Source: Longimicrobiales bacterium
GTDB lineage: Bacteria > Gemmatimonadota > Gemmatimonadetes > Longimicrobiales > Gaopeijiaceae
Direction of reading: 5' to 3'
Assembly (NCBI GenBank): GCA_965248195.1
Contig: CBDFIQ010000001.1
Span: 416,001 to 480,000, forward strand
DNA length: 64,000 nucleotides
Below, piece by piece: positions 21,106 through 52,615 of the stretch. The notes below the pieces were generated by a model, which searched no databases, was not told the origin of the DNA, and saw nothing but the letters and a program-made list of their open reading frames with translations. The position numbers and the translations under genes are program-made. Within the stretch, counting starts at the first letter, position 1, and each line of letters starts with the position of its first letter.

Positions 21106-21963
21106 TCAAACCGAAGCAAGACGATGCGCCCGGAGGAAGGACCGTATCTGGCGCACCGCCAGAGGAATCCGCTCCTGGGGCTCTTTCCACGGGAAAATGC
21201 TCACTTCGGCCTTCGGCGCGAGCATCGCGGCCTCCATGGCGACGGCGTATGGATGCGCGGGGATATCATCCGGCAGGATCAGTAAGGGCGTCTGGCAATT
21301 GCGCACGAATTCGCGTGTCACGGTGAAGACGAAGTCGGCGTTGGTGCGGTACATCCTCGTCAGAAATCGGTCGACCATTTCCATCGTGACGTCGGGCCGA
21401 CGGGCGGCCAGCGCAGGACCCCAGCCCCTCATATTGTTTTCGTAGAAGTAGTCGGGCGTCTCCGGACTCCAGCCGCTGGGCTGCGCCAGCACGGCAGCGA
21501 CGACTCGGTCGGGCGCGCGTTCGAGCAGGTTCCAGATGAAGGGGCCGCCGATGCAGAAGCCCAGTACCATGAACTTGTCGATGCCCAAGTGATCCATCAG
21601 ACCGAGATGGTCATCGGTATGGGCATCCCACGGTCGGTCGACCTCGAGCGGGCCGGAGGACTGGCCGTCATTGGCGTTTCGCAGGTCCGACCCGATGCAG
21701 CGGTACTCTCCCTCGAACTCCTCGATCGGGTTGAAAGGTCCGCGGGCCAAGCCGGAAAACGTCGAGTTCAATCCCCCGCCGGGGATGAGCAACAACGGGA
21801 AGCCGGAACCGGCCTCCTCATAGTAGATACGAACGGGGCCTCTTTCGTAGAAGGAAATGTCCGTCCCACTCTGCCCAGTCTGCCGACCAAACACGCGCTG
21901 CGCTGCGGCCAGCGCCGTCGCCGCGGCGCCCGCTGCCAGGATGCTGCGTCTACTCGGATCCAT
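21106..21963 (-). CDS. Alpha/beta hydrolase with Tat signal
   Basis: SRRSIL; GFCIGG nucleophile elbow (Cys in place of Ser). Confidence 0.85.
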   Translation of the reverse strand: MDPSRRSILAAGAAATALAAAQRVFGRQTGQSGTDISFYERGPVRIYYEEAGSGFPLLLIPGGGLNSTFSGLARGPFNPIEEFEGEYRCIGSDLRNANDGQSSGPLEVDRPWDAHTDDHLGLMDHLGIDKFMVLGFCIGGPFIWNLLERAPDRVVAAVLAQPSGWSPETPDYFYENNMRGWGPALAARRPDVTMEMVDRFLTRMYRTNADFVFTVTREFVRNCQTPLLILPDDIPAHPYAVAMEAAMLAPKAEVSIFPWKEPQERIPLAVRQIRSFLRAHRLASV

Positions 21964-22109
21964 GATCGGCGTTCTCCTTACTCATTGTCGAGTCAGTGTC
22001 AAACGCTGAAAAACGGGCTGAAGTTAGCTACCGGTAGGATTTATTATCAAGGACGGTGTCAACAAAGACCGAATACACTTAGACGACGATTCTGGACGTC
22101 TGAGACGAT

Positions 22110-22246
22110 TCTGCTTGCGCCTACCGCCCCACTCTCGGATGTTGAGCGCAGCCTGAACTCGGAGTGCGCCAATGTCCGAACCCGTCACCCGCCTGAACGC
22201 AGCCCTAGAGGGCCGCTACGCCATCGAGCGTGAGTTGGGCGAAGGG
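22110..22246 (+). pseudogene. Promoter-like repeat D plus Ser/Thr kinase N-terminal fragment A
   Basis: CTGCTTGCGCCTACC...GGATGTTGA, then ATG 22172 MSEPVTRLNAALEGRYAIERELGEG. Confidence 0.85.
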
Positions 22247-22317
22247 GTCATCGGCGAGGGAAGACACCCGATCAGATTGCGAACTGGAGTGCGTCCAACA
22301 GACAGGGAGCCAAAACT

Positions 22318-23289
22318 ATGAAAACTAGCACCGGGCAACCGCTCTCACGACGGGCTGCTCTACGTAGCATGGGGGTCGGGATCGCCCTCATTACGAGCGT
22401 CGCAGCTGGCGGATGTGCATCGCAAATAGACGATCCGGCGCCACGGATCATTGTCTCAGGAGCCTCCGGTCAGATCGGTGGCCGGGTAGTGGAGGAGCTG
22501 CTCGCTCGCGGAGTTCGACCCGCAGACCTCATCCTGGTGAGCCGAACGCCCGAGCGACTCGAACGATACGCAGAACTCGGGGCCAGCACCCGGTTTGGCG
22601 ACTTCCTCCAACCCGAATCCCTGGAGACGGCCTACGAGGGCGGTGACCGGATGCTCCTGATCAGCCTCAACAGCAGCAACCCCGATCCACGAGTACCGGC
22701 GCAGCGTGTCGAGCTTCAGCAGACCGCCATCGACGCGGCCATCGAGGCCGGGGTAGAGCACATCGTCTATACCTCAATCGTGGACGCTGACAACAGCGTG
22801 TCCCCGATTGCGGTATGGCACCGAGCGACGGAGGCAGACCTGCGGGAGAGCGGGGTCACTTGGACGGCGCTCAGGAATCAGTGGTATGCAGACGGACTCG
22901 TGACCCAGGCCGCTCGCATGGTTGAGGACCGTCGCGTGGTGGTGCTCCCGGACGATCCTGGGACCGCGTTCGTGACCCGCGAGGACTGTGCTGTTGCGGC
23001 AGCCGTTGCGCTCATGACGCCTGGCCACGAAAACCGAGTTTATGAGATCACTGGTCCGGCACTGGTCCGAATGCGCGACATCGCCTCGATCGCCAGCGAG
23101 ATCAGTGGCATCGAAATCGAGGTGATCGAGGCGGGGCCAGAGGACGAGGTTCGGGCACCTCGGCCTTCTGGAACCACCCTGACAACTCACTTCAGGGACA
23201 TCACTGGAGAGCCTGGCACCACAGCCCGAGACTTGTTGGAGGCGAACCGAGATGTGCTTCTGGAGGCCCGTGGGGGTGAGAGCCGGTGA
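22318..23289 (+). CDS. NmrA-like/SDR NAD(P)-binding protein (QOR2-like), Tat lipoprotein
   Basis: SRRAAL..AGGC; VSGASGQIG; HIVYTSI; LRNQWY. Confidence 0.85.
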   Translation: MKTSTGQPLSRRAALRSMGVGIALITSVAAGGCASQIDDPAPRIIVSGASGQIGGRVVEELLARGVRPADLILVSRTPERLERYAELGASTRFGDFLQPESLETAYEGGDRMLLISLNSSNPDPRVPAQRVELQQTAIDAAIEAGVEHIVYTSIVDADNSVSPIAVWHRATEADLRESGVTWTALRNQWYADGLVTQAARMVEDRRVVVLPDDPGTAFVTREDCAVAAAVALMTPGHENRVYEITGPALVRMRDIASIASEISGIEIEVIEAGPEDEVRAPRPSGTTLTTHFRDITGEPGTTARDLLEANRDVLLEARGGESR

Positions 23290-23424
23290 AGTTGGAGCAC
23301 CGCTTGAGTTCACCTCGGGTTCGAGCTGGGCGGGGAAAGGACGCCGAGGGACTGCCGCCGCAGTTCAGCGAGATCCAATGGCTGGAAGTCGCCGATGCTC
23401 CCGATCGAATTGTGGAGGGGTTCA

Positions 23425-23488
23425 CGTCTTCGTGGAAGGCGTGGTGATCGTGCGAGCTGACCCTGGCTGACGACCTCAAGCACGAGCG
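23425..23488 (+). repeat. Composite spacer: partial repeat B plus kinase fragment LADDLKHER
   Basis: CGTCTTCGTGGAAGGCGTGGTGATCGT (23425-23451) and CCTGGCTGACGACCTCAAGCACGAGCG (23462-23488). Confidence 0.75.
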
Positions 23489-23546
23489 CAGTTCAGGGAG
23501 CCACTTTTTCTCTAAACTACGACAAGAAAATGACGGAGGTGGTGTC

Positions 23547-24539
23547 ATGTCACGATTGATCTTGTCCCTGGCTTTGTCGCTGGCGCCTCTCAGCATGAAC
23601 GCTCTCAGCGCCCAGACCTGTGACCCAGATGGTACCGTGAAGTTCGTGTGCGGTACCACCAACCCGGAAGACCTTTTCCTCGTTCCGGGTACCCCCTGGG
23701 TGATCGCTTCTGGACGATACTCCGATTCGGAAGGCCCGATCTACGCGGTCGACGCTCGTGATCACAGCGCCCGGGAAATCTTTCCCGCGGGCAGATTGCC
23801 ACCGCAGCACGAGAGGGACACCTATCGAGCCTGCCCTGGGCCGAACACCGTGTTTCAACCACACGGACTGACCCTGCGGGAAGGCAGCGGCAGCGTGCAT
23901 ACGCTATACGTGGTTGGCCATGGCGCGCGCGAAGCCATCGAGGTCTTTGAACTGGATGCCAGTGGCGCCCTTCCCACTATGAAATGGATCGGTTGTATCC
24001 CTGCGCCGGAAGGCACCCGGCGCATCAACTCCATTACGGCCTTGCCCGGCGGCTATCTCGGAGCCACCAATTTCGACACCACCGGCGGAGAACTCTGGGA
24101 ATGGCACCCCACGACTGGCTGGATCGAAGTGCCGGGCAGCCAGATGCGCGGTCCTAATGGCCTGGTTTCCTCTGATGACGGGCGATGGTTTTACATCGGC
24201 GGCTGGAGTGACCAGGCACTGGTGCGACTGTCGCGTGGCCAAACCCCGGTGCGAGTCGATCCGATCCTTGTTGGCTTCAACGTCGACAACGTGCGCTGGG
24301 GACCCGATGGCAAGGTGATCGTCGCCGGTCACGTGACTCGTTGTGAAGGGTCCGACCCCTGTGAACTGGCTGCCGCCCGCGTCGCCGAGGTCGATCCGAA
24401 CACGTTTGCTGTCCGGCAGTTGGTCGACTACAAGGGCAATGATTTTTTCAAGCTTGGAACCGTGGCGATCGACGTAAGTGACGAGATCTGGATTGGTGGC
24501 ATCAACGGCAGCTATGGAATCGCCCGCTTTCCACGGTAA
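23547..24539 (+). CDS. Secreted SMP-30/paraoxonase-like beta-propeller hydrolase
   Basis: NPEDL, FQPHGL, GPNGL, VDNVRW. Confidence 0.8.
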   Translation: MSRLILSLALSLAPLSMNALSAQTCDPDGTVKFVCGTTNPEDLFLVPGTPWVIASGRYSDSEGPIYAVDARDHSAREIFPAGRLPPQHERDTYRACPGPNTVFQPHGLTLREGSGSVHTLYVVGHGAREAIEVFELDASGALPTMKWIGCIPAPEGTRRINSITALPGGYLGATNFDTTGGELWEWHPTTGWIEVPGSQMRGPNGLVSSDDGRWFYIGGWSDQALVRLSRGQTPVRVDPILVGFNVDNVRWGPDGKVIVAGHVTRCEGSDPCELAAARVAEVDPNTFAVRQLVDYKGNDFFKLGTVAIDVSDEIWIGGINGSYGIARFPR

Positions 24540-24552
24540 GCGGGTCGAGTCC

Positions 24553-24625
24553 GATCCCCTGGCTTCGCGTCTTCGTGGAAGGCGTGGTGATCGTTGGTTC
24601 GATTCTGATGGCGTTCGGGATCTGA
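24553..24625 (+). repeat. Repeat B (IPWLRVFVEGVVIVGSILMAFGI*)
   Basis: 42-bp core GATCCCCTGGCTTCGCGTCTTCGTGGAAGGCGTGGTGATCGT identical in four places. Confidence 0.9.
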
Positions 24626-24719
24626 TCGTCACGCTGGGGCTACCGGGGGTGTTGCTGAAGTGGATCCGATGTCGTCTGGGGTGGTGCCGTCCCCGTGATT
24701 TTCCGCGTATGTTGCGGGC

Positions 24720-25238
24720 ATGACCAATAACAGGGTCTACATACTGCTTACGCTGCTCCTCGCCGCGTGCTCGACGAGCACCCCCGTGGAGGTTGGGTCA
24801 ACCGCGCTCCTCACGACCAACCCCGCAGCCGGAACTGCGGGCGTTGATGTCAAGGCTCAGATCGAGGTGCGGTTCGATTCCCCGATCGCGTCTGGAGCCG
24901 GACACCCCATAGCCCTCCAGGTCGGAGACTGCCCCGGACCGGTCGTAGCGGGTACGTGGTCGAGGACCGCTGACGGCATGGGGCTGAGGTTCACGTCGAC
25001 GCAACCCCTCGATCAGTCCACTCGGTACACCATCCACGTGGGTGGTGGCCTGACAGATGCCGACGGGGCCATCATCAACCTCGACCTCAACGGCCTCGCA
25101 CTCGGTGGAACGTGGGTGACGCTCGACATGGTTATGGGCATGACCGGCATGGGCATGGGCCAGTCACACAGTGGGCCGGAGTGGCTCTACCTGAACGGGA
25201 TGTACGGGCTCGCTTTCGCTTTCAACACGGGACCGTAG
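24720..25238 (+). CDS. Lipoprotein with bacterial Ig-like (Big_5) domain
   Basis: LLAAC; PAAGTAGVDV..IEVRFD; PLDQSTRYTIHV. Confidence 0.7.
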   Translation: MTNNRVYILLTLLLAACSTSTPVEVGSTALLTTNPAAGTAGVDVKAQIEVRFDSPIASGAGHPIALQVGDCPGPVVAGTWSRTADGMGLRFTSTQPLDQSTRYTIHVGGGLTDADGAIINLDLNGLALGGTWVTLDMVMGMTGMGMGQSHSGPEWLYLNGMYGLAFAFNTGP

Positions 25239-25318
25239 CGGAAACCGACGGCGCTCCTTTCTCGCTCGACGCGCCGACTGGTTAGGGAACCGTCTCATCT
25301 GAGAAAAGAGGGATTGAA

Positions 25319-25813
25319 ATGAGCGTTACTGATGAGCTGTTGAGGAACAACGACACCTACGCCGAAGCGTTCGACAAGGGCGAGCTGCCTATGCCGCCGT
25401 CCCGTCAGGTTGCGGTGGTGGCCTGCATGGACGCCCGGCTCGATGTCTATCGGATCCTTGGACTCGAGCTCGGGGAGGCCCATGTGATTCGGAACGCTGG
25501 CGGGGTGATCACTGATGACGCGATCCGGTCGCTCGTCATCTCTCAACGCCTGCTCGCGACCCGGGAGATCATCCTGATCCATCACACGGACTGCGGCATG
25601 CTCACCTTCCGGGATGACGAAGTCAAAGCCGCGATCACCGAGGATGTGGGCGTGAGACCTCCGTTCGCTTTAGAGGCATTCCCCGACGCGCGGGAGGACG
25701 TGCGGCAGTCGCTCAGACGTGTGAGATCGAACCCCTTTCTCCCCCACAGCGAGGCGGTACGCGGCTTCGTCTTCGACGTGAAGACCGGTAAGCTGCGAGA
25801 GGTGACTGACTGA
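25319..25813 (+). CDS. Beta-class carbonic anhydrase
   Basis: CMDARL, IRNAGG, HHTDCG. Confidence 0.92.
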   Translation: MSVTDELLRNNDTYAEAFDKGELPMPPSRQVAVVACMDARLDVYRILGLELGEAHVIRNAGGVITDDAIRSLVISQRLLATREIILIHHTDCGMLTFRDDEVKAAITEDVGVRPPFALEAFPDAREDVRQSLRRVRSNPFLPHSEAVRGFVFDVKTGKLREVTD

Positions 25814-25895
25814 AGGAGCGGGTGGGCAATTGACTCGCCAGATCCCCTGGCTTCGCGTCTTCGTGGAAGGCGTGGTGATCGTCGGCTCTATCCTG
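25811..25895 (+). repeat. Kinase C-terminal fragment (KERVGN*) plus repeat B
   Basis: GAAGGAGCGGGTGGGCAATTGA then TRQIPWLRVFVEGVVIVGSIL. Confidence 0.85.
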
Positions 25896-26052
25896 CCGAA
25901 GAGCATGTAGTATGCCATTGACCTCTCGGACGTCGGGGACACTGACCGGGTGAGCTTAAGTCATGCATAAAGAGCAAGATCCGAAGCGATTGACTGGGGG
26001 AAAGAAGGAGCTGTTGTCGATTTTGGATCGATTCGAGTCAGCCATCGTTAGC

Positions 26053-27543
26053 ATGAAAGGCCGTTCGATCACCACGTTTGCCCTGCTGAAGCGCCTGCGG
26101 CCCCTCCGCGCCCTCGTAGTATTCGCGGTGGCCTGTAGCGACACTGCGCAGATTACGCAACCCGAAGCCAGAGGGTCCTCACTGTTCAGCACTAGTCCAG
26201 CATCGAAAGCCAGCGGGGCTAGCTTCCGGTCGGTGAGCGCCAGCTCCTTGCACAGCTGCGCTGTGACGAAAGCGGGGGGCGCATACTGCTGGGGCCAGAA
26301 CGGCGATGGCCGTCTCGGGGACGGCACGAACACGGCCAGTAGCGTGCCGGTACCGGTCTCGGGCGGGCACAAATTCCTGTCGGTGAGTGCGGGCTCCTTG
26401 CACAGCTGCGCTGTGACGACAGCGGGGGACGCATACTGCTGGGGCTCTAACGCCGATGGCCGTCTCGGGGACGGCACGAACATGGACAGCAACGAGCCGG
26501 TGCAAGTCTTGGGGGGAAACACCTTCCGGTCGGTGAGCGTTGGCGGCTGGCATAGCTGCGGGGTGACCGCTGCCAGGGACGCCTACTGCTGGGGCTCTAA
26601 CAGCACCGGCGCGCTCGGGGACGGCACGTTCACGACCAGCAACAAGCCGGTAGCGGTATCGGGCGGGCGCAGCTTCCGATCCGTGAACACCGGCGTGCGC
26701 CACAGCTGCGGTGTGACGACCGCGCGGGTCGCCTACTGCTGGGGCTTAAACGGCAGTGGTCGGCTCGGGGACGGGACGGACACGTTCCCGGCCGAGAACG
26801 AGCCGGTGGCGGTCTCAGGCGAGTATACCTTCCAAACGGTGACCGCCGGCGGCGACCACAGCTGCGGGGTGACGACGGAGGAAGCCGCCTTTTGCTGGGG
26901 TGAGAACGAGGATTTCGGCCAGCTCGGGGACAACACGGAAACGAACAGCAGCGTGCCGGTACCGGTCTCGGGCGGGCACAAATTCCTGTCGGTGAGTGCG
27001 GGCTCCTTGCACAGCTGCGCTGTGACGACAGCGGGGGACGCATACTGCTGGGGCTCGGGCGGGGCTGGCCAACTCGGGGACGGCACGAACAATAGCAACG
27101 GCGAGCCGACGGCGGTCTTAGGCGAACTCACCTTCGAGTCGGTGAGCCCCGCTCTCGCCCACACGTGCGGGCTCACCACCGGCGGAGCGGCCTACTGTTG
27201 GGGCTGGAACGGCGATGGCCGTCTCGGGGACGGCACGAACACGAACAGCAATGTGCCGATCCTTGTCGAGCTCACACTCCCTACGCCCCAGCACGAGCTC
27301 GACCTCTTGATCGACGACGTACAGGCCCTGGTCGATGCTGGCGTCTTGCTGCCGTCAGCGCAGGCGAACGGGTTGTTCGCCAAACTCAATGCCGCTATCG
27401 ACGCTCTGGAAAAGGGTAACACTAGGGCTGCTATCCAGCTCCTTGGGGCGTTCATCCAAGAAGTTCACCAAATCCTCTCGCCACAGTACGGCCAGCCACT
27501 AATCGACACCGCGCAGAGCATCATTGACCAGTTGAGGCCGTGA
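26053..27543 (+). CDS. RCC1-repeat lipoprotein with C-terminal helical domain
   Basis: Seven HSC..AYCWG.N..GRLGDGT repeats; AVAC lipobox; start uncertain (25963 or 26053). Confidence 0.85.
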   Translation: MKGRSITTFALLKRLRPLRALVVFAVACSDTAQITQPEARGSSLFSTSPASKASGASFRSVSASSLHSCAVTKAGGAYCWGQNGDGRLGDGTNTASSVPVPVSGGHKFLSVSAGSLHSCAVTTAGDAYCWGSNADGRLGDGTNMDSNEPVQVLGGNTFRSVSVGGWHSCGVTAARDAYCWGSNSTGALGDGTFTTSNKPVAVSGGRSFRSVNTGVRHSCGVTTARVAYCWGLNGSGRLGDGTDTFPAENEPVAVSGEYTFQTVTAGGDHSCGVTTEEAAFCWGENEDFGQLGDNTETNSSVPVPVSGGHKFLSVSAGSLHSCAVTTAGDAYCWGSGGAGQLGDGTNNSNGEPTAVLGELTFESVSPALAHTCGLTTGGAAYCWGWNGDGRLGDGTNTNSNVPILVELTLPTPQHELDLLIDDVQALVDAGVLLPSAQANGLFAKLNAAIDALEKGNTRAAIQLLGAFIQEVHQILSPQYGQPLIDTAQSIIDQLRP

Positions 27544-27570
27544 GGGTTGCTGAGTCGACCTTCGACTCCT

Positions 27571-27603
27571 AGCCCCGAGCGTCCCAGCGGCGTTCGGGGC
27601 TTT
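27571..27603 (+). terminator. Probable intrinsic terminator
   Basis: AGCCCCGAGCG...CGTTCGGGGCT followed by TTT after the RCC1 gene. Confidence 0.55.
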
Positions 27604-27611
27604 CGCTTCGC

Positions 27612-27934
27612 TGGGCTCCGTGAGCGTGATCATCACATCCATGATCTTCGCGCTGGGGCTGCCGTCACTGTTGATCTAGACTCGAACATAAGCACCCCAT
27701 AGCGCCCCTCTAAGCCACGAAACCACTCCAGCCTAACCAGAAGAGCGTCACCGCCACTAGCGCGGATGCCCGAGTCACGTTCACCGATGGGCTCTTCATC
27801 GAGCCAAGCTAGGGCTCCTCGAATCGAGCGGATAGATCGGCTCTGCCGGCCCGAAGCACTCGGCCCGACAGGCCTCTGCTTGCGCCTACCGGCCCGCTCT
27901 CGGATGTTGACCTCGGTCTGATCCCGGAGTGCGC
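27612..27934 (+). repeat. Repeat C (membrane-protein C-terminus, 27612-27683) and repeat D (27873-27934)
   Basis: GSVSVIITSMIFALGLPSLLI* matches 31810-31881; D matches 22110 and 31881. Confidence 0.8.
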
Positions 27935-28039
27935 GAGTGACGGCCCACCCTAAACTCGCGCGTGCTTCGATCCGAGACCCCCAGCTGGTGAGGGGTGCAG
28001 GCACTATAAACAGTTATGAACAGCCACGGTTAGGAGTAA

Positions 28040-30247
28040 GTGATGAAACGAGAGAACCGACGACCGGGCTTGGTATGCATCACCTCGGCCGCTCTGGTCG
28101 TGTTCGCCGGTGTGTTCGTTCCGCGGTCCGCGGCTTTTGCTCAACAGGCCTCCTATACGGATCAGCAGGCGAATAGTGGGGCTTCAATTTATCAGGCGGC
28201 GTGCGGCGCCTGCCATCTCACTGATCTGCTGGGCGGCACCGCGCCCCAGCTCGCGGGAACCAACTTCCGTAACACTTGGGGGGGTCGGCGCGTCTCACAG
28301 GTGCTGCTGTACATACGCTCTTCCATGCCGCCCGGCGGTGAAGGGTCGCTGAGCGACGAGGAGTACTCCGCCATAACCGCGTACATCATGAGCCAGAACG
28401 GAGTCGACCCGGGCACGACTCCTTTGAGCTTCGCGTCGGAGGGGGGATTGGCGATGGCCGAGGGGGCCGTGCTGGCCGCCGGCGGCAACACACCCATTCC
28501 CGGTGTTGCGGGTTCGATCCCCTCGCCAGGGGGCAGAAACGCCGTTCCCCCATATGGCGGGCTGTCCGAGACTCCCACCGGAGTTACCCGGACGTTTAGA
28601 AGATTGGAAGGGTTCACGCCGGTTACCGACGCAGAGCTCAGAAACCCACCAGACGGCGAATGGCTCAGCCCGCGGGGAAACCTGGGCTCGTGGGGCTATA
28701 GCCCGCTGAGTCAGATCACCACCGAGAATGTCCATCGCCTCGAGCTCGCCTGGGTCTGGGGGATGGAGGATGGCACCCGGAGTCAGCCGGCGCCGTTGAT
28801 TCGAGACGGAGTCATGTTCCTGCCGAACTGGGGCAACACGATTCAGGCACTCGACGCTGCCACGGGAGATCTTCTCTGGGAGTACCGCCGAAATTTCCCC
28901 GAGGGCATGAGTCGCGGCCGCGGCCGGGTTCGGACCCTGGCGATTTGGGAGGACATGATCTACGTGTCCACCAACGATGCCCAAGTGATCGCTCTGGATG
29001 CCCGGACCGGTGTGCTTCGGTGGGAAGCCAAGCTCGCCGAGCCGAACCTGGGCTACGAGAACTCGAGCGGCCCGGTCATCGCCAACGGCAAGATCATCAA
29101 TGGCATCAACGGCTGTACCCGTTTGATCCCGGAGAGCTGCTTCATCACCGCGCACGATGCCCGGTTCGGGGATGAGCTCTGGCGCACTTTCACGATCGCG
29201 CGCCCAGGCGAGCCCGGCGGAGACACGTGGGGTGGACTTCCTTTTGAGCTGCGTGGCGGGGGCGACGTCTGGAATATCGGGAGCTACGACCCGGAGTTGG
29301 GGCTCGTGTACTTCGGCGCGTCCCAAATGAAGCCGCGGGCGCCGGTGAGTCGGGGGACCGTCCGGACCGAGGCGGATTCGATCCTATACAGCAGCTCGAC
29401 GCTGGCGTTAGATGAGAACACCGGACGTATCGTATGGTACCGGCAGTACGTTCCGGACGAGTCACTCGATATGGACGAGGCCATGGAGCAGGTGCTGATC
29501 GACATCGATGGCCAGCCAACGCTCTTTCAGATCGGAAAGCACGGCATCCTCTGGAAGCTGGACCGCCGCGACGGCCGGTTTCTTGGCCTGAAGGAGACGG
29601 TCTTTCAAAACATTCTGGAGCTGAACTATGAGACCGGTACGAGCACGTATCGGCCGGACATCCGCGATGCACAGGTCGGCGAGTGGGTTTCGGTCTGCCC
29701 CTCCACGGCCGGGGGAAAAAATTGGCATGCGACCAGCTACCACCCGGAATCCGGCCTGATGGTTATCCCGCTCAGCCAGACCTGCATGGAGAGCGTTGCC
29801 AGCGAGATCGAAATGGTGTTGGGGGGCGGAGGCACCGGGCAAAGTCGGATGTGGTCGGAAATGCCCGGAACGAATGGGAACCTCGGAAAGCTCGCCGCCT
29901 ACGATGTCAGGACACTGGAGGAGGTCTGGAGCGTGGAGCAGCGGGCTCCATTCCTGACCTCGATTCTCACTACCGCTGGGGGGCTCGCCTTCGCTGGCGA
30001 TTATGACCGACGGGTTCGGGCGTATGACGTCACGACCGGTGAAACGTTGTGGGAGAGCCGCTTGGGCACCGCGGTTCAGGGCTTTCCAACCACTTACGAG
30101 GTCGACGGGGTGCAGTACCTCGCCGTACCCACTGGCGTGATTGGAGGGAGCCCATGGCGGGTTTCGACCTTCCTCGCGCCCGAGATCCTGATTCCGCCTG
30201 GTAACAGGCACAACGCGATGTACGTGTTCCGGCTGGGAGAGCTATGA
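28040..30247 (+). CDS. PQQ-dependent dehydrogenase with N-terminal cytochrome c
   Basis: CGACH heme motif; [33 protein letters not shown]. Confidence 0.9.
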
Positions 30248-30300
30248 CGTAGGGTTCCACGTGCTCGATCCCAACAACAAGTCTCGGCCTGGTACGGACC

Positions 30301-30482
30301 TGGGACATTCATCCCGACGGCTCGCGCTTCATCATGGTGGCTTCAGCCGGAGCCGGCGGAGGCGCCCTAACCGAGGTCTACCTGGTCACCAACTGGTTCG
30401 AGGAGCTTCGCGAGCGGATGGGAAATTGAAGGCTCAGATCCCCTGGCTTCGCGTCTTCGTGGAAGGCGTGGTGATCGTCGGC
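30301..30482 (+). pseudogene. Kinase/TolB-like C-terminal fragment followed by repeat B
   Basis: WDIHPDGSRFIMV...VYLVTNWFEELRERMGN* (TGA 30427) overlapping TTG of MKAQIPWLRVFVEGVVIVG. Confidence 0.85.
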
Positions 30483-30561
30483 AAACTGAAGAACTAGCGG
30501 CCTCGCATTAGTCCCATCCAGCCACCGCACCGCCCAAGCATCACCCATAGCTTCACCGCGG

Positions 30562-31575
30562 CTAGTTCCCTCTCACCCAGTAGAGGCAGCCGGGCCCGGC
30601 GCCGTCGCCCATCGGGATCTCGTGGGTAACCTCGAGCGTATTCAGATCCACGACGGCCACCCGGTCCGCGGCCCGCAGCCCCAGATAGGCGTGTCTGCCG
30701 TCTGGGGCCACCAACAAAGCGCCGTCCCCCAGGTCGCCGGAGCCGAGGGACACTCGGGTGATCTCCGTGCGAGACGCCGCGTCCATGACGACGAGGGTTG
30801 CCGCCTCGCCGTCGATGATCAGTGCCCGACCGTCCGGCGTGAACTTAAGGCGATTCGCGTCTTCGAGGCCCAGGTCGAGCGTCTCGACGACGGCTCGGCT
30901 GGCGACATCGATGATTGACACTCCACCGTCGTTCCGGGTTGCGGTCCAGATTTCTCGGCCATCCGGTGACAGATCGATGCCTTCAGGCCGTTCACCCGGC
31001 ACCGGAATCACGGTTAGCCTCGACGCGGCGGGGCCTGCCGAGATGCGCTCGACCATGGTTACGGAATTCGAGCCAATGTTCGACATGAACATGGTGTCGG
31101 TGTCGCGGTCGAGGACGAGCAGGTGGGTGCCGTCCTGGCCAATCTCAAGCGTCCACTCGATCGCGTCGGTCGATGGATTGTAGCGCCCGATCGACTTGTA
31201 GCCTTCGATGGTGAAGTACACCTTGCCGTCGGCAAAGAGCACATCATGCGTCCGGCTGCCGGGGCCAGGGTCGACTCGCCGGACTTCCGTTTGCGCGGTC
31301 AGGTCAATGACTGAAATCCCGTCCACCATGCTGGCCACGAACGCCCACCGGCCGTCGGCGGATGCGGTGACCTCGTGCGGATCTCGGCCCGTCGGCACGC
31401 GTCCCAGCTCCGTCCCGCTGGCCGGATCGACAATCGCCAGCGCGCTGGCGTCTCGGAGCAACACGAGAAGTCGTCCGGATGTCGGTGACTGGGCGCTGAC
31501 CGCGGCATGCCCAAGGACCAGCGCGCCGAGCGCTACCAACGCGACCCGTCGGAGCACCGTGCTCACTGAGTGCAT
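30562..31575 (-). CDS. Secreted YncE/YVTN beta-propeller protein
   Basis: VPTGRDPHEV, PEGIDLSPDG repeats; GGAGG RBS before ATG 31575. Confidence 0.8.
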   Translation of the reverse strand: MHSVSTVLRRVALVALGALVLGHAAVSAQSPTSGRLLVLLRDASALAIVDPASGTELGRVPTGRDPHEVTASADGRWAFVASMVDGISVIDLTAQTEVRRVDPGPGSRTHDVLFADGKVYFTIEGYKSIGRYNPSTDAIEWTLEIGQDGTHLLVLDRDTDTMFMSNIGSNSVTMVERISAGPAASRLTVIPVPGERPEGIDLSPDGREIWTATRNDGGVSIIDVASRAVVETLDLGLEDANRLKFTPDGRALIIDGEAATLVVMDAASRTEITRVSLGSGDLGDGALLVAPDGRHAYLGLRAADRVAVVDLNTLEVTHEIPMGDGAGPGCLYWVRGN

Positions 31576-31809
31576 CTGATACCTCCGTGTGTGCTGAGGT
31601 GGCTCTGTGGTGACGCCGACCACACGACTGCTGACAATACAGCCTACCACCGCATCCGGCCCGCGGGTCCAATGCAGTATGTGCGGGCCGCGCACTCTTC
31701 TGCGAAGAGGGTCCAGCGGATCCTCCTCTCCGCCTCCTCCTGCGCATGAACAACGGCATCGGCTTCCTGCTCCGCATCACCGACGTTGAGAAGCAGCCCT
31801 TCCGCTCGA

Positions 31810-32070
31810 TGGGCTTCGTGAGCGTGATCATCACATCCGTGATCTTCGCGCTGGGACTCCCACTCGTGCTGCTCTAGACTCCTCTGCTTGCGCCTACCGG
31901 CCCGCTCTCGGATGTTGAACGCGGTCTGATCCTCTGATACCGAGGACCGCACAATGTCCGATCCCGTCACCCGTCTCAACGCAGCCCTCGAAGGCCGCTA
32001 CACGATTGTGCGTGAACTGGGCGAGGGCGGCATGGCGACGGTGTATCTGGCGGACGACCTCCGGCAATAA
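31810..32070 (+). pseudogene. Repeat C + repeat D + kinase N-terminal mini-ORF (31954-32070)
   Basis: MSDPVTRLNAALEGRYTIVRELGEGGMATVYLADDLRQ*; Hanks kinase Gly-loop GEGGMATVY. Confidence 0.88.
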
Positions 32071-32111
32071 GAACTCATCCATACTACAAGCCCCACTCAG
32101 GACTCAACGTC

Positions 32112-33239
32112 ATGAAGGCACTTGCACGGTTTTTGACCCTAGTCCTCCTTCTGGGTAGTGGTCTTCCCTCAAGGACAAGCGCCCAGAGTCGTACCTTCGT
32201 TGCCACGGACCGGAACACACTGGGTACCGCGATCGAACGCTCCGCCTCCCTTTCTTTCGGAGACGTGGATATGGACGGAGATCTAGACGTTGTCGTGGCG
32301 AACGGACGCCATTGGCCCGAACAGAATGAGGTCTTCTTCAATACTGGTACCGGGGTCTTCCTGCTTTCCCGGCCAATAGGAACCGACTTCGCCAGTTCCT
32401 ATTCGACACCGCTTGCCGACCTCGACGGAGACGGTGACCTGGACGTGGCCGTCGGGAATGATCGGGTTAGGAAGATGATTCTCCTCAACGATGGAGCCGG
32501 GTATTTCTCTCCCGCAGGGTCCTTTGGCCGTGAAGCGAGCACACGGAGCCTTACACTGGCCGACCTCGACGGCGATGGCCATACCGACATCCTCGTCACG
32601 AACCGGGGACAGCAGAACGCAATCTATTTCAACGATGGGAGGGCGGGTTTCGAGCGATCTGAGCCCTTTGGCTCCGACGACGATTCGACTATCGACGTCG
32701 TGGCTATCGATATGGATAGGGATGGGGATCTCGACTTGGTACTGGCCAACCGCGACGGCCAGCCGAACTTCGTTTACCTGAACGACGGAGACGCAACGTT
32801 CCCCGAACGGGTCCCTTTCGGAACTGGGAGCGACGAAACTCGTGGTGTCGCGGTGGCGGATCTCAACGCTGACGGCCTTCTCGACATTGTGACTGCCAAT
32901 ATTGGGGAAGCCAACGGCGTCTACCTGAATGACGGAACCGGGGGATTTGGAGAGCCCATCTTCTTTGGTCGTCCCGAGGGAGAAAGCTATACGGTAGCGG
33001 TCGCGGACATGGACCTCGATGGAGATATCGACATCGTGATCGGAAATGTGGGAATGGAAAACGCTGTCTTCTTCAAAGACGACTCGGGCCACGATTTCCA
33101 CGAGGTCCGTTTCGGGGACCCCAACCACATCACATATGGAGTAGCGGTCGGGGATCTTAATGGGGATGGCTTCCCTGACATTGGTGTGGCCAACTCCGAC
33201 GGACCCAATCTCGTTTACCTGAATCGGCCTGGGCGCTAG
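32112..33239 (+). CDS. Secreted FG-GAP/VCBS repeat protein
   Basis: Seven DxDGDGxxDxxxxN repeats. Confidence 0.88.
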   Translation: MKALARFLTLVLLLGSGLPSRTSAQSRTFVATDRNTLGTAIERSASLSFGDVDMDGDLDVVVANGRHWPEQNEVFFNTGTGVFLLSRPIGTDFASSYSTPLADLDGDGDLDVAVGNDRVRKMILLNDGAGYFSPAGSFGREASTRSLTLADLDGDGHTDILVTNRGQQNAIYFNDGRAGFERSEPFGSDDDSTIDVVAIDMDRDGDLDLVLANRDGQPNFVYLNDGDATFPERVPFGTGSDETRGVAVADLNADGLLDIVTANIGEANGVYLNDGTGGFGEPIFFGRPEGESYTVAVADMDLDGDIDIVIGNVGMENAVFFKDDSGHDFHEVRFGDPNHITYGVAVGDLNGDGFPDIGVANSDGPNLVYLNRPGR

Positions 33240-33280
33240 GCCCTTGGCGCCCCATACGCCTTAGACGCATCTTGTCCGCC

Positions 33281-33349
33281 ATGACTGATCCCGTCGCCCG
33301 TCTCAACGCAGCCCTCGAAGGCCGCTACACGATCGAGCGTGAGGTATGA
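33281..33349 (+). pseudogene. Kinase N-terminal mini-ORF overlapping the next gene (ATGA)
   Basis: MTDPVARLNAALEGRYTIEREV*; TGA 33347-33349 overlaps ATG 33346. Confidence 0.85.
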
Positions 33350-35482
33350 CCGATCGGCAAGTGCTTTTTGGGGTGGCATCGCTCGGGATCGTTCTTTCAT
33401 GCAGCTCCGCCGTATCTGCCGAGCCGGGAGAGGCGCGTATGCTGGTCTTCTCTAAGACCGCAGGGTTTCGGCATGCATCCATCGAGCCTGGGATCGCGGC
33501 TCTCGGGCAACTCGCCGCCGCCGCTGGCTTCCAGCTAGATACCACGGAGGACGGAGACGCGTTCACCCCTGCGAACTTGAGGCGCTACCAAGCGGTCGTC
33601 TTTCTATCGACGACGGGAGACATCTTGGACGAACCGCAGCAGCTCGCCTTGTGGTCAAGTCCCGATTTGTGTGTAAAAGCGGAGGAAGCTCCTCGCCTTC
33701 GGCTAGGCTGCTTGGGCGACCTCCTGTTTCTGGAGGAGTGAGAGGTCGAGGTAACGCCGGTCGCCCCAGACGTGTGTGGTCCTGAGTGCGACGGCCGTGA
33801 TGAGCCTGAGGGCGCTGGCCCGGTCCGGGAAGGCGCCGGCGGCCTTGATCCTGCGTTTGATCTCGCCGTGCAGCCGCTCGAGGCTGTTGGTGGTACGCAG
33901 CCGGGGCCAGTGCGCCTCGGGGAACGCGTAGAACTGCGTCGCTGCCCCGAAGCCCCGCTCCAGGACCTCCACGGCCTCGGGCAGCTCCTTCTTCCAGCGT
34001 GCGCCGAACTCGCCCAGGAGCTTCTTCGCCTCGGCGAGTCCGGATGTCTGGAAGATCACCGAGACCTCACGCGCCACGCGCTTGCGTAAGCGGTGGGGGA
34101 CCCTCGCCCCCACATTACGCTGCAGATGGACCGTACACCTCTGACGGCGTGCCTCGGGCAGGAAGCGGCGGACCGCAGCTGCCAGGCCTGCGTGCTCATC
34201 GGCGATCACGAGCTCGACACCGCCGAGGCCGCGGTCCTGGAGTTGCTCGAGGAGCTCCGACCAGCTCTGCTGCGACTCCTCAGCGCCCAGCGTGACGGCC
34301 AGGAGCCGTCGGTGACCCTCAGGGCCCACTGCATACGCCACGAGCGCACTCACGTTCTCGACTTTGCGGGCCCAGCGGGCGTCCAAGAACGTGGCGTCCA
34401 GGTACAGATAGGGGTGAGGCCCCTCGATCGGCGCACGGCGCAGCCCTTCCACGGCCTCGTCGAGCCGTTTTGCCACACGACTCACCGTCGAGCGCCCAAC
34501 ACGCTCGCCCATCAGCGCCTCGGTGACGTCGCCCATCTTGCGCTGTGACACGCCGCTCACATACGCCTCGACCATCATCTCGTCGAGCTCGGGGCTCCTG
34601 CGCTGGTAGCGGCCGATCACGTCGGCCGGCGAACCGTTGTCCCGGCTCCGGGGCATGGCGACCTCGATCTGCCCCAGGCTCGTCAGCAGCCGCCTCAGGT
34701 ATGTGCCGTTCCTATGGTCCTTCCGGCTTCCCACCCGCTCGAAGCGGCGTGCACCTACCATGGCCTTCAGCTCCTCTTCCAGCACCATCTCGAGCGTCAG
34801 CCGGATCGCGCCTTGAAACAGCTCGCGCAAATCATCGCGTAGCTCGTCTTGCGTGGCCCGACCGATCTCCACAATCTCTTGCATCGGAAGCTCCTCTCCG
34901 GTTCCGAGCCTGCTCTGCAGACCCGGACTCCCGGGTTCATGTGACAGTGAACAACAACAGAGGAGCTTCCGTTTTTCTTTCCCTCCTGTCCAGCTTATCC
35001 GCTTTTACACAAATCTAGGGACACTACCCGCCTTGTCGGAGTTCGTTCGGGCAGGCGGTGGATTCGTCGGCGTACACTCCGCCAGTGACACTGAGTACGA
35101 CTGGCCGTGGTACGGGCAGCTCGTGGGCGCGTACTTCGACGGGCATCCGAGCAATCCGAACGTGCGGACCGGGAGGCTGCTGGTTGTGATGCCGGATCAC
35201 CCCGCGACGGCGTCGCTTCCCGGCACGTGGATTCGATCGGACGAGTGGTACGATTTACGAGACCTCCAAGCCGGATTGTCGATTCTCCTGGAGGTCGATG
35301 AGCTCAGCTACAAAACGCCCGAGGAGAACCCTCTACCGGATCCGCGTCCGATCGCTTGGTTCAGGGAGTTCGACGGGGGTCGTACGTTCTATACAGCACT
35401 CGGGCATACGGTGGAGAGCTATGCCGATCCGCTCTTCCTAGAGCACGTTTGGGGCGGACTCACATGGGTGCTGGGCCAATGA
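33346..35482 (+). pseudogene. ThuA-like domain protein interrupted by IS256
   Basis: LVFSKTAGFRHASI...QQLAL | SEFVRAGGGFVGVHSASDTEYDWPWY...YTALGH; removing the IS and one TSD restores the frame. Confidence 0.88.
33653..35028 (-). mobile_element. IS256 family element, copy 1 (transposase 33703-34884)
   Basis: YLDAT, RCTVH, RTTNSLERL motifs; imperfect terminal IRs; 8-bp TSD CGCCTTGT. Confidence 0.95.
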
Positions 35483-35524
35483 GCAGACGGTCAACTCCTC
35501 TTGTGGTGTCCACGTAGGGCCGCC

Positions 35525-35659
35525 ATGACCGACCCCATCACCCGCCTGAACACAGCCCTCGAAGGCCGCTACGCCATCGAGCGTGAGCTAGGTGAAGGCG
35601 GCATGGCGACGGTCTACCTGGCTGATGACCTCAAGCATGAGCGTAAGGTCGCGCTGAAG
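35525..35659 (+). pseudogene. Longest kinase N-terminal fragment, in frame with the downstream cargo
   Basis: MTDPITRLNTALEGRYAIERELGEGGMATVYLADDLKHERKVALK, reaching the VAxK lysine. Confidence 0.9.
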
Positions 35660-35716
35660 GGGGTCCACCAGCGATCCGGATGTCCAGAGCGTGGGTATGC
35701 CCGAACAGGAGGGCTC

Positions 35717-36306
35717 ATGACCAGGGCCACACCCTTCCTTGTGGCACTCCTGCTCACTCTCCCCTCGGGGGGTTCATCGCAGGCTGCCCCGAGTCCCGGC
35801 GACCGCGTCCGCGTCCGGCAGTTAGACGGAGCCGTTCTCACGGGCACGCTCGCCACTTTCTCGAGCGAAGGTATACAACTATCCATCGATTCCGTCAGCC
35901 CGCCGGTGGAGGTCCCCGTATCAGCGATCGAGGCCCTGGAGGCCAGCCTATCCGAGTCCGGGCTGCGGATGCATTGAGGATGGAGGGTGTGTTCGTAGCC
36001 TTCGAAGGGCAGGATTTGCTCGTGAGCACCAGCCAGGTGGAGCCGGACCAGCGCGTTCCCGTCGATCGACTGCAAGCCCTGTGGGTACAAGAGCGAGCTA
36101 CCCGGAAGGGTGCTGTGATCGGCGGAATGATGGGGGCCGTTCTCGGATTAGGGGTAGGCTACTACGGTCGGGAGTACGTCCTAGACCCCGGGGAATTCGA
36201 TGGCGGCGATCTGGTAGCCATCACGGTGGTGGGAGCGGGTTTGGGGGCGGTCCCCGGAGCGTTGATAGGTTATCTGGTGCGGGGGTGGTCCCCCGTTTGG
36301 CCGTAA
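35717..36306 (+). pseudogene. Secreted/membrane hypothetical with Gly-zipper C-terminus; frame changes near 35945
   Basis: AGGAGG RBS; SPGDRVRV domain then, in another frame, IRVRA...KGAVIGGMMGAVLG. Confidence 0.5.
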
Positions 36307-36356
36307 GCACAGGGTCCTCCGAAGGCTCGGGACGCCGTTCGTGATCGTCACCAACT

Positions 36357-37732
36357 GGTCAAGTCCCGATTTGTGTGTAAAAGCGGAGGAAGCTCCTCGC
36401 CTTCGGCTAGGCTGCTTGGGCGACCTCCTGTTTCTGGAGGAGTGAGAGGTCGAGGTAACGCCGGTCGCCCCAGACGTGTGTGGTCCTGAGTGCGACGGCC
36501 GTGATGAGCCTGAGGGCGCTGGCCCGGTCCGGGAAGGCGCCGGCGGCCTTGATCCTGCGTTTGATCTCGCCGTGCAGCCGCTCGAGGCTGTTGGTGGTAC
36601 GCAGCCGGGGCCAGTGCGCCTCGGGGAACGCGTAGAACTGCGTCGCTGCCCCGAAGCCCCGCTCCAGGACCTCCACGGCCTCGGGCAGCTCCTTCTTCCA
36701 GCGTGCGCCGAACTCGCCCAGGAGCTTCTTCGCCTCGGCGAGTCCGGATGTCTGGAAGATCACCGAGACCTCACGCGCCACGCGCTTGCGTAGGCGGTGG
36801 GGGACCCTCGCCCCCACATTACGCTGCAGATGGACCGTACACCTCTGACGGCGTGCCTCGGGCAGGAAGCGGCGGACCGCAGCTGCCAGGCCTGCGTGCT
36901 CATCGGCGATCACGAGCTCGACACCGCCGAGGCCGCGGTCCTGGAGTTGCTCGAGGAGCTCCGACCAGCTCTGCTGCGACTCCTCAGCGCCCAGCGTGAC
37001 GGCCAGGAGCCGTCGGTGACCCTCAGGGCCCACTGCATACGCCACGAGCGCACTCACGTTCTCGACTTTGCGGGCCCAGCGGGCGTCCAAGAACGTGGCG
37101 TCCAGGTACAGATAGGGGTGAGGCCCCTCGATCGGCGCACGGCGCAGCCCTTCCACGGCCTCGTCGAGCCGTTTTGCCACACGACTCACCGTCGAGCGCC
37201 CAACACGCTCGCCCATCAGCGCCTCGGTGACGTCGCCCATCTTGCGCTGTGACACGCCGCTCACATACGCCTCGACCATCATCTCGTCGAGCTCGGGGCT
37301 CCTGCGCTGGTAGCGGCCGATCACGTCGGCCGGCGAACCGTTGTCCCGGCTCCGGGGCATGGCGACCTCGATCTGCCCCAGGCTCGTCAGCAGCCGCCTC
37401 AGGTATGTGCCGTTCCTATGGTCCTTCCGGCTTCCCACCCGCTCGAAGCGGCGTGCACCTACCATGGCCTTCAGCTCCTCTTCCAGCACCATCTCGAGCG
37501 TCAGCCGGATCGCGCCTTGAAACAGCTCGCGCAAATCATCGCGTAGCTCGTCTTGCGTGGCCCGACCGATCTCCACAATCTCTTGCATCGGAAGCTCCTC
37601 TCCGGTTCCGAGCCTGCTCTGCAGACCCGGACTCCCGGGTTCATGTGACAGTGAACAACAACAGAGGAGCTTCCGTTTTTCTTTCCCTCCTGTCCAGCTT
37701 ATCCGCTTTTACACAAATCTAGGGACACTACC
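36357..37732 (-). mobile_element. IS256 family element, copy 2 (transposase 36407-37588)
   Basis: Same element with at least one silent SNP near 36793; TSD CACCAACT; splits the VTNWFEEL kinase fragment. Confidence 0.95.
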
Positions 37733-37771
37733 CACCAACTGGTTCGAGGAGCTTCGCCAGCGGATGGGAAA

Positions 37772-38746
37772 TTGAAGGCTCAGATCCCCTGGCTTCGCGT
37801 CTTCGTGGAAGGCGTGGTGATCGTGGGCTCTATCCTGTTGGCGTTCGGGATTGTGGCGTGTTGGGACGACGTAGAGCTGGACCGAGAGCTGAACCAAGAA
37901 CTCCAGAATGTGGCGCGGGAGCTTGAGGAGAACCGGAGCAAGGCCCCAAGCTCAGCACTCTCGCAGACACCAGACCAGGCCCACATCCATGCGGGTGAGC
38001 CCGTGAGCTGCACGACGCTTGCGTCGCCGCCGTGGAGCGGATTGTCCGATACGGATCGCCTGCAAGTCGCTGCACTGCGACAGGCGATGTCCGAGCTCGA
38101 TACACCGGAAGCCGCCCGTGCCGCCGGGTTCAATCCTACATTGGGCGATATCCCCGGCATGGGCGTGCATTACGTGCACATGGGACGCAGCCTGGACGGT
38201 GTAAGGATCGATGCGCCGGACCACTTGATGTTCGCCAGCATCGATGACCGGGAGCAACTCGTCGGCGCGGCTTACGTGTTCATCGACGTGCCGGAAACCG
38301 AAGTGCCCATACCGTTCCAAAGCGACCTTGCCCGATGGCATGACCATCCCCAGTTCGCCGACCAGGGTCGGACCCTACACATGCTGCACGTCTGGTTCGT
38401 TCCGTCTTCGAACGGCCCGTTTGCCGGCCTCAACTTCTGGCTGCCCTACCGTACCGCGGGCATCGAGCCGCCTAGCTCGTGCTGGATGGCCGATGAGGCG
38501 GACGCCGATCGGATTCGGAACGTCTCGTTCGCGCTCGTGCCGCCGCGGTGGGGGGCAGCTGCCAGGGAACTGTTCGCGGAGCGGCAGGCGGTCCGAGGCG
38601 AGATGCTCGCCACATTGGACGCAGCCGCACGTGCCGTCGACCGCGATGCCTGGGTCGCGGCCGCAGACCGCTTCCTCGCCGATCTGACCGCATCCGAGCG
38701 CAGCACCCTCGAGGCTAGGCTCCGCGCTTCGACCATGGCCAGATGA
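37772..38746 (+). CDS. Chimeric ORF: repeat-B N-terminus + repeat E + hypothetical GMGVHY-motif domain
   Basis: MKAQIPWLRVFVEGVVIVGSILLAFGI...; PGMGVHYVH, WHDH, MLHVW. Confidence 0.6.
   Translation: MKAQIPWLRVFVEGVVIVGSILLAFGIVACWDDVELDRELNQELQNVARELEENRSKAPSSALSQTPDQAHIHAGEPVSCTTLASPPWSGLSDTDRLQVAALRQAMSELDTPEAARAAGFNPTLGDIPGMGVHYVHMGRSLDGVRIDAPDHLMFASIDDREQLVGAAYVFIDVPETEVPIPFQSDLARWHDHPQFADQGRTLHMLHVWFVPSSNGPFAGLNFWLPYRTAGIEPPSSCWMADEADADRIRNVSFALVPPRWGAAARELFAERQAVRGEMLATLDAAARAVDRDAWVAAADRFLADLTASERSTLEARLRASTMAR
37978..38011 (+). repeat. Dispersed 34-bp repeat E, copy 2
   Basis: Identical to 21018-21051. Confidence 0.85.
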
Positions 38747-52550: not shown

Positions 52551-52615
52551 CCGCCGTCTAACGTCTCGTGTTTCTGCTGCGCGCCAAAGATGTGGACCGC
52601 AAGCGAAGCACGCGA
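52551..52615 (-). other. Half attC site (R' side)
   Basis: Homologous to the 53816/55297 attC; GCAGAAACACGAGACGTTAGAC. Confidence 0.7.

Follow-up and report, generated by a model that had tools for sequence, protein, structure and literature searches.

Remnants of both ends of a multicopy Ser/Thr kinase family flank unrelated genes in a Longimicrobiales genome

The window analyzed here is a stretch of 64,000 nucleotides (nt) from a Longimicrobiales bacterium (positions C1:416001-480000 of genome G000, which is 4.86 Mb in two contigs and 92% complete). Its positions 22110-38011 contain an array in which unrelated genes, here called cargo, alternate with short pieces of a kinase locus. Pieces A and K are the 5' and 3' ends of a ~900-amino-acid Ser/Thr kinase with PD40 repeats (Pfam PF00069 and PF07676), D and P are promoter-like elements, and B and C are stubs of neighboring genes. 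A 5' stub consists of a promoter-like element and the first 1-67 kinase codons, and a 3' stub of the last kinase codons and the stub of the next gene. A sequence-only reading of the window had assigned these pieces to one ancestral arrangement and proposed a gene-capture or shuffling system that uses the kinase ends as recombination anchors. We found that the remnants occur throughout the genome and the genus, derive mainly from the kinase ends and accompany cargo that has moved between species. The features of the array are as follows; gene calls came from a home-made dicodon model, and start positions are possibly off.

21106..21963, minus strand: cargo, alpha/beta hydrolase (Pfam PF00561); 93-98% copies in G006 and G011, in other settings
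22101..22171, plus strand: D, a putative promoter with a short leader and a Shine-Dalgarno (SD) sequence; found upstream of intact kinases in relatives
22172..22247, plus strand: A stub, kinase codons 1-25; same stub-cargo junction in G006, G007 and G011
22318..23289, plus strand: cargo, NAD(P)H-binding/NmrA-like protein (Pfam PF13460, PF05368), framed by D-A and B
23418..23452, plus strand: B stub (BLAST remnant match)
23462..23490, plus strand: internal kinase piece, nt 93-121 (BLAST remnant match)
23547..24539, plus strand: cargo, exported beta-propeller (weak SGL/SMP-30 match, Pfam PF08450, E 0.003, below cut-off)
24550..24660, plus strand: B stub fused to a 3' piece of C (C part 24622-24660); fusion also at a different G006 locus
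24720..25238, plus strand: cargo, Ig-like (Big_5) lipoprotein-like protein (Pfam PF13205)
25319..25813, plus strand: cargo, beta-carbonic anhydrase (Pfam PF00484); framed in G001 as D-A-gene-K-B
25809..25897, plus strand: K stub (last 8 codons) and B stub (B at 25832) (BLAST remnant match)
25963..27543, plus strand: cargo, RCC1-repeat protein (Pfam PF25390, PF00415)
27600..27730, plus strand: C stub (C match listed at 27612), the 3' end of a membrane protein gene, and C-D spacer (27681-27730)
27873..27939, plus strand: D (BLAST remnant match)
28043..30247, plus strand: cargo, cytochrome c/pyrroloquinoline quinone (PQQ) dehydrogenase (Pfam PF01011, PF13442), framed by D and K-B
30298..30483, plus strand: K stub (~43 codons; K match listed at 30301) and B stub (30426), then a tail common to other B stubs, to ~30530
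30562..31575, minus strand: cargo, YNCE-like beta-propeller (Pfam PF21783, PF02239); 97-98% copies in G006 (two) and G011
31701..31877, plus strand: C stub (C match listed at 31810)
31879..32066, plus strand: D (31881) and A stub (31954), codons 1-37 (BLAST remnant match)
32112..33239, plus strand: cargo, FG-GAP repeat protein (Pfam PF13517)
33243..33346, plus strand: P (33243-33280, ending 7 nt before the ATG), a second putative promoter type, and A stub, codons 1-21 (A at 33281)
33346..35482, plus strand: cargo, ThuA-like protein split by an insertion sequence (IS) (Pfam PF06283 on both halves); unbroken in G005
33653..35028, minus strand: IS256-family element with 8-bp target duplication, inside the ThuA gene (Pfam PF00872)
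35525..36306, plus strand: A stub, codons 1-45, in frame with a cargo open reading frame (ORF) broken near 35977; second ORF piece with a weak glycine-zipper match
36341..37771, plus strand: K stub interrupted by an IS256-family element at 36357-37732 (Pfam PF00872), which has an 8-bp target duplication
37772..38746, plus strand: B stub continuing in frame into a cargo ORF that has no Pfam match; fusion also in locus L128

The pieces lay where the sequence-only reading had placed them, all on the plus strand: D at 22110, 27873 and 31881, A at 22172, 31954, 33281 and 35525, C at 27612 and 31810, K at 25811, 30301 and 36343/37733, and B at 23418, 24550, 25832, 30426 and 37772. Two assignments required correction, as the piece at 23462 was not a kinase N-terminus but an internal piece, and the kinase C-terminus at 25811 was present but comprised the last 8 codons only. 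P, the C piece fused to B, the C-D spacer and the two IS256-family elements had been missed. That nearly every gap holds a piece was borne out: of the 12 gaps that separate non-IS genes between 21963 and 38746, 11 contained one, as counted from match lists, the exception being 25238-25319. A Pfam scan of the 18 ORFs in the stretch detected no kinase and no integrase, as had been stated. One IS256-family element breaks the ThuA gene and another a K stub, so the stubs are older than these insertions; a third near-identical copy is near 50167-51348. The stop codon of the A stub at 33281 overlaps the start of the ThuA-like cargo. The fusion of B to cargo at 37772-38746 recurs in another genome (L128) without a K stub, and this chimera may therefore be a kept gene. 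The RCC1-repeat gene contains an internal exact repeat of ~100 bases (26340-26440 and 26950-27050).

We examined the kinase family from which the pieces derive. G000 has four long members, one of them frameshifted, and copies with both the N-terminus and the core numbered 36 in G005, 18 in G011 and 9 in G006. Intact kinases are preceded by either D or P, both of which contain a TTG box and, 17-18 bases later, a -10-like hexamer; that of P lies 7 nt before the ATG. In G000 genes lacking an SD sequence, -10-like hexamers peak 5-6 nt upstream of the ATG (13 and 22, vs. ~2-9 elsewhere), and a TTG at the 17-18 spacing was present in 10 of 51. A scan for E. coli-type promoters called neither D nor P. 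The layout of the genome's own SD-less genes gives moderate support for the suggestion that D and P act as promoters. Among the intact kinases, neither promoter class nor B status was clearly linked to any part of the gene (nearest-neighbor test, 20 and 30 genes).

B corresponds to the start of a gene for a 228-257-amino-acid membrane-anchored protein, C to the end of one for a ~370-amino-acid membrane protein, and neither protein has a Pfam match. The 34 exact copies of B comprised 13 after a kinase body, 9 after a K stub and 12 after neither, and 32 of them run into a stop within 78 codons, the other two being fusions; judged from its reading frames, the B gene is nearly always dead. It is already a stub behind intact kinases, and full-length B and C genes exist but are not kinase-adjacent in that arrangement. 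As an adjacency, the succession C, spacer, D, A ... K, B is real, though intact B and C were never seen in it, and the single ancestral C-D-kinase-B locus that had been proposed is a composite drawn from adjacency, never seen intact. An apparent clustering of B 3' ends at 58 nt turned out to be an artefact of query length. At L031, L050, L057 and L060 (G007 and G011), the position of B behind some intact kinases is taken by another repeated element, and a short remnant of it is present at an empty site of G000 (C2:1451400). Two G000 kinases (C2:3056923-3060219 and C2:3105779-3109042) contain an extra N-terminal domain, which by eye we take to be adenylate-cyclase-like in fold, and one of them has its own P-A stub upstream.

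A BLAST search of G000 with 69 reference pieces detected 139 pieces in 105 clusters, and the reversed genome gave none. A few of the clusters are promoters or B stubs belonging to the long kinases. The densest 50-kb bin was that of the window, with 9 clusters against a mean of 1.07 over 98 bins. Stub density did not track IS density in G000 (rho 0.11, p 0.27), and the G+C content of cargo was the same as in the rest of the genome (0.63). D/A matches were found in 11/11 congeners and 21/41 genomes, and K-B matches in 10/11 congeners and 13/41 genomes (tallies over 41 genomes count G025 as one row, and no claim depends on it). An exact 36-base B piece was found in 34 stretches of the genome collection, 33 of which are labelled Longimicrobiales or Gemmatimonadota, on which concentration the placement of the pattern at order level rests; the remaining match is one short contig labelled Gammaproteobacteria. 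Stubs were also frequent in G014 and were rare in G038, G022 and G018 despite many long kinases (by frame lengths), so a large family alone is insufficient for stubs. Thus, the pieces are not confined to the window with one cargo order kept in relatives, an outcome that would have pointed to a one-off local decay. The stub-rich stretch L081 (G004) is 99-100% identical to L082 (G001), and the two genomes are filed as different species. Greedy clustering grouped further dispersed intergenic repeats of G000 (e.g. at window 40645-40735), including a 37-nt hairpin in 18 copies, a 70-nt element in 14 and four more families of 8-11 copies each, several of which also lie at cargo junctions.

The remnants are biased toward the kinase ends. 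Orphan matches per 20-codon kinase window in G000 fell from the start as 28, 16, 11, 7, 2 and 2 (codons 1-70), were 0-1 for windows starting at codons 61-281 and rose to 6 for the last 20 codons. Detectability was complete (4/4 family genes) in windows through codons 211-230 and 0-4 of 4 beyond, so the absence of orphan pieces from the propeller means little; windows of the catalytic core have amino-acid identity up to 0.93 yet 0-1 orphan matches. In three near-complete congeners, an N-terminus without the core was more frequent than a core without the N-terminus (12/48 vs. 1/37 in G005, 19/28 vs. 3/12 in G006 and 25/43 vs. 2/19 in G011). The relatives' loci had been picked for stubs or window cargo, which biases counts on that side, and tests were therefore done on the G000 side where possible. 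Breakpoints of 27 A stubs were scattered from nt 29 to nt 202, in contrast to the ends of tRNA-Ile-like fragments and IS elements in the same output, and this scatter excludes a fixed site. These tRNA-Ile-like fragments are several 3' pieces with a common left boundary (C2:419-465 kb and C2:1718-1725 kb) and look like leftover attachment sites of integrative elements.

The cargo is oriented with respect to the stubs. Clusters ending in D, P or A faced a same-strand non-IS gene in 56 of 64 cases (p 6e-10; 7 further 5' stub clusters facing an IS were excluded), and by a crude rule 31 of 55 stub-facing same-strand genes looked exported, compared with 617 of 1929 comparable genes (32%), in keeping with the claim that unrelated, often secreted genes sit at the kinase ends. 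Seven genes were framed by stubs on both sides, against an expectation of 0.93 for genes lying no more than 10 kb from a stub; without this region the count was 4 against 0.6. Contigs of G004 contain runs of P-A-cargo-K-B units, and those of G001 similar arrays, with different cargo. Several cargos start with kinase codons in frame; at G000 C1:179655, 234974 and 243174 and at L047:9788-11012, such N-termini stand ahead of a signal-peptide-like stretch. At C2:2362864, A is fused straight to B with nothing between.

Gene-sized segments of cargo have moved between species. Eight genes of the array region (the hydrolase, the NAD(P)-binding protein, the 23547 propeller, the carbonic anhydrase, the PQQ dehydrogenase, the YNCE propeller, ThuA and the 37940 ORF) have 84-98% copies in congeners, which extend beyond the gene by a few to tens of bases and lie beside unrelated DNA; no such copy of the Ig-like, RCC1 and FG-GAP genes was listed in the five genomes searched. 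The median identity of shared cargo blocks was 96% (18 blocks), vs. 85% for long collinear blocks (12 blocks). Six genes of the array are permuted in one G006 island with their relative orientation kept. The 23547 propeller follows four different upstream remnants in G000, G004, G005 and G006, and the PQQ dehydrogenase has a 97% copy in G011, there without the D and K-B frames. The same cargo was found behind different promoter types and stub lengths across species (D-A of 81 nt vs. P-A of 106 nt), the cargo at C1:1406614 likewise behind P-A and D-A in different species, and one carbonic anhydrase-K junction continues into two different K-B variants.

The window has no synteny with G004-G007 and G011 (G001 replacing G007 in one comparison), and occupancy was therefore compared at other loci. 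At the same site it differed between genomes. Downstream of one gene with a C stub, the cargo is a different one in each of G000, G006 and G011. Another site, flanked by core genes that by eye we take to be thrS and infC, is empty in G000, contains an intact kinase and a B stub in G011 and contains a B/C stub and cargo in G006.

We lean, if only just, toward an enzyme-free, two-step capture and exchange around the multicopy kinase-PD40 family in one marine Longimicrobiales genus. In the first step, illegitimate joins, often where both partners have a few bases in common, would replace or delete the kinase body, so that a promoterless foreign gene lands behind D or P and a stub, sometimes in frame, with the kinase 3' end and a B stub sometimes left behind it; selection would retain the joins that give cargo a promoter. 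We consider this step very probable, its pattern being observed and microhomology joining being its presumed chemistry. In the second step, host RecA-type recombination, either one-sided (homology-facilitated illegitimate recombination, HFIR) or two-sided, would reuse the stubs as anchors and move stub-linked genes between loci and species, with later deletions eroding the stubs. Ends of 40-200 nt in dozens of copies per genome of the genus could serve such reuse, which we judge slightly more probable than the contrary. A stronger version, in which the kinase family seeds frames, captured genes become expressed and exchange among frames within and across species through host recombination alone, and exchange spreads the frames as a self-reinforcing, integrase-free cassette system, is speculative and rather doubtful.

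Explanations that place a dedicated machine or an assembly error behind the array were weighed against this two-step capture. An eroded integron cassette array that lost its attC sites might be suspected from the gene-sized, mostly co-oriented cargo, from integron integrases above cut-off in 6/11 congeners and from an attC-like family in G000 with 24 copies of fixed ends, two of them in the window. Yet a model built from 11 attC sites of the genus found none in the gaps of 22110-38011, as the sequence-only reading had held, giving a 16-bit match inside a gene and 10-bit matches inside IS only, while elsewhere in the window it matched at 55285 (69 bits) and 52561 (24.5 bits). Moreover, 22 of the 24 copies lie more than 3 kb from any stub, the best TIGR02249 match in G000 is broken by stops and ~660 kb away (C1:1112697), and cargo ends vary by tens of bases between genomes, unlike cassettes, which makes this origin very improbable. 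An undescribed recombinase or mobile element recognizing D/P, A or the B core is somewhat less far-fetched and still improbable. The core of the dead B gene shows almost no variation, third codon positions included (0.88 vs. 0.91/0.88), gave the 34 exact 36-nt matches and contains a 9-10-bp hairpin, and G000 has 17 tyrosine-recombinase-like matches. Against such an enzyme, neither side has a fixed breakpoint, and no recurring recombinase stood beside stubs in 18 mapped loci of relatives (N-termini judged by eye) or in the window stretch. As a terminator or single-stranded DNA site the hairpin was rejected, being no more stable than shuffled sequences (z +0.5 to -1.7) and omitted by a terminator scan; the exact B core was absent from viral contigs, and reverse transcriptase (PF00078) was not found in G000 or in G005 (95% complete), while it was present in G006 and G011. 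Repeat-driven misassembly or a chimeric bin is hardly credible. Since no single contig among four sequencing runs spans the stretch, the full gene order depends on the assembly, and the source sample may be run X1. However, the repeats measure less than 140 nt, with 60-98% similarity, in an assembly of only two contigs, the pattern is present in all congeners, the same junctions occur in assemblies of other species, and individual junctions are crossed, with few differences, by contigs from three studies that are not the likely source (X9 record 26 over 22211-23391, X4 record 19 over 24596-25207, X11 records 11 and 12), contrary to the concern that the junctions might go unbridged. One X11 contig matches the array through the carbonic anhydrase and K-B up to 25852, beyond which its sequence differs, a hint of alternative neighbors in natural populations.

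The closest competitor of two-step capture is birth-and-death decay with promoter retention. Kinase copies would be gained and duplicated in variable islands and then deleted, leaving stubs as fossils rather than recombination handles, with 5' ends surviving since the next gene needs a promoter and 3' ends surviving passively, and cargo would move by ordinary homologous recombination at other flanks, by IS or by tandem duplication and random loss. Taken together, this is a serious possibility that we nevertheless consider unlikely. It accounts for the 5' bias, the falling stub-length curve, the same-strand bias, the A-to-B fusion at C2:2362864, tandem kinase arrays in relatives, a general gene-end bias, the kept orientation in permuted islands and the many stubless cargo ends. 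It predicts neither two-sided framing at 7-8 times what is expected locally, nor the same cargo behind different promoter types, nor paralog-type switches past a shared junction, and each framed gene needs two independent deletions. Several results nonetheless weigh against two-step capture. Intergenic pieces of non-kinase G000 genes, examined as a control, comprised 62 start-type, 84 end-type and 14 middle-type loci, some of the start and end loci being IS ends or mis-called starts, but the kinase set alone gave 47/109 start-type loci. Junction overlaps of 1-25 nt were seen at 8/36 ends, a count that has no null model and may include eroded stubs. K/B stubs followed a same-strand gene in 15/22 cases, which is not significant (p 0.13). 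Outside the window, 14/206 shared-block ends had a stub in G000 vs. a background of 106/7954, a fivefold excess in a small minority, and 7/37 ends with a stub in the relative were also stubbed in G000; in 28/43 cross-genome comparisons (reciprocal duplicates included), the other genome had no detectable 5' stub. Since most shared-gene ends are stubless, the array does not represent an obligatory cassette system. Aside from a partial carbonic-anhydrase case, we found no cargo that had both stubs intact at different loci in two genomes and clear crossovers in both stubs. Many stubs are shorter than the homology that RecA requires. ComEC and Ku are present in G000 and also among relatives without stubs (ComEC 32/41, Ku 25/41), and no Ku was detected in the stub-bearing G006 (93% complete); neither gene tracks the stubs. 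Excess synonymous identity was 0.28 at kinase 5' ends (bootstrap 0.11-0.37) and 0.07-0.16 inside, with overlapping intervals, and the 5' 40 codons correlated with the interior at Spearman 0.22-0.31, against 0.57 for two interior windows of the same size; homogenization of the 5' ends would fit exchange at ends but is not significant, is only suggestive and could reflect selection on translation start. Thus, of the proposed capture or shuffling system, the genus-wide, end-derived remnants, framing and mobile cargo hold and a dedicated system is not supported, as no enzyme and no fixed site accompany the stubs, and the use of kinase ends as anchors does not separate cleanly from promoter-keeping decay.

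Some features of G000 touch on integrons and DNA end joining. The genus possesses true integrons. The attC copies of the window lie at 52561-52655 and 55285-55375, and the cassette arrays, which begin in the window, lie at C1:468-506 kb and C1:1081-1113 kb. At 53930-55295, a transposase gene, which by eye we take to be IS110-like, ends inside attC, and the same end sequence interrupts ~8 of the 24 attC copies, which suggests that this transposase family may target attC. At L106:5865-9577 (G000 C2), Ku adjoins a 909-amino-acid gene that by eye is presumably LigD-like.

We found no description of this pattern in the literature, searched mostly outside subscription journals, and in three Gemmatimonadota surveys (PMC11316326, PMC10581226 and PMC11651109) a word search found the main text silent on protein-kinase expansion and integrons. 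Entry and expression of promoterless foreign genes without integrase or transposase is usually invisible, and here its footprints can be counted at ~100 sites per genome. If the stubs are reused as anchors, paralog expansion would amount to a distributed integron and would explain the exchange of single genes across a 15% sequence gap. Under decay too, the array would be a clear natural record of repeated promoter capture. Annotators should note that, in these genomes, a large share of the short "kinases" and unusual N-termini represent remnants.

Several known systems resemble the array in part. Integrons use IntI, attI and attC to carry gene-sized, co-oriented and often exported cassettes behind a supplied promoter. 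The array likewise has co-oriented, often exported cargo, a supplied promoter and an order shuffled between genomes, but it has a promoter stub per cargo and lacks attC, a nearby integrase and a fixed crossover. Site-specific elements with a gene as their target, such as the integron-like elements in rulB, also leave a protein gene in pieces, but they enter at one fixed base and carry recombinases (PMC4542609), while here breakpoints spread over ~170 nt and no recombinase travels along. In Neisseria minimal mobile elements, variable content is exchanged by host recombination between conserved flanks, which are intact single-copy genes at a fixed locus (PMC3787668); here the flanks are 40-200-nt remnants at ~100 loci, a given cargo occurs at non-orthologous sites, and variable content between conserved flanking genes was found at some loci and not at this window. 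Among Helicobacter pylori bab paralogs (PMC4552749) and in the Staphylococcus aureus lpl cluster (PMC2568036), occupancy or promoters are swapped at conserved 5', 3' or central DNA, paralog for paralog, whereas here unrelated genes replace the gene body. The Vibrio type VI secretion system orphan-immunity arrays and the orphan modules of Rhs and contact-dependent inhibition systems, together with HFIR of which they are proposed products (PMC5361080, PMC6382021 and PMC2884548), share with the array an anchor conserved on one side, an illegitimate join on the opposite side, leftover gene pieces and no integrase. Such a homologous anchor on one side was found here, stubs lying at shared-block ends five times as often as background, in a minority of cases. 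In those arrays, the anchor lies at few orthologous loci and serves one functional class, whereas here it is a dispersed multicopy gene end with a putative promoter and unrelated cargo. By analogy, the array would work like HFIR arrays and bab-type end exchange while being a member of neither as defined.

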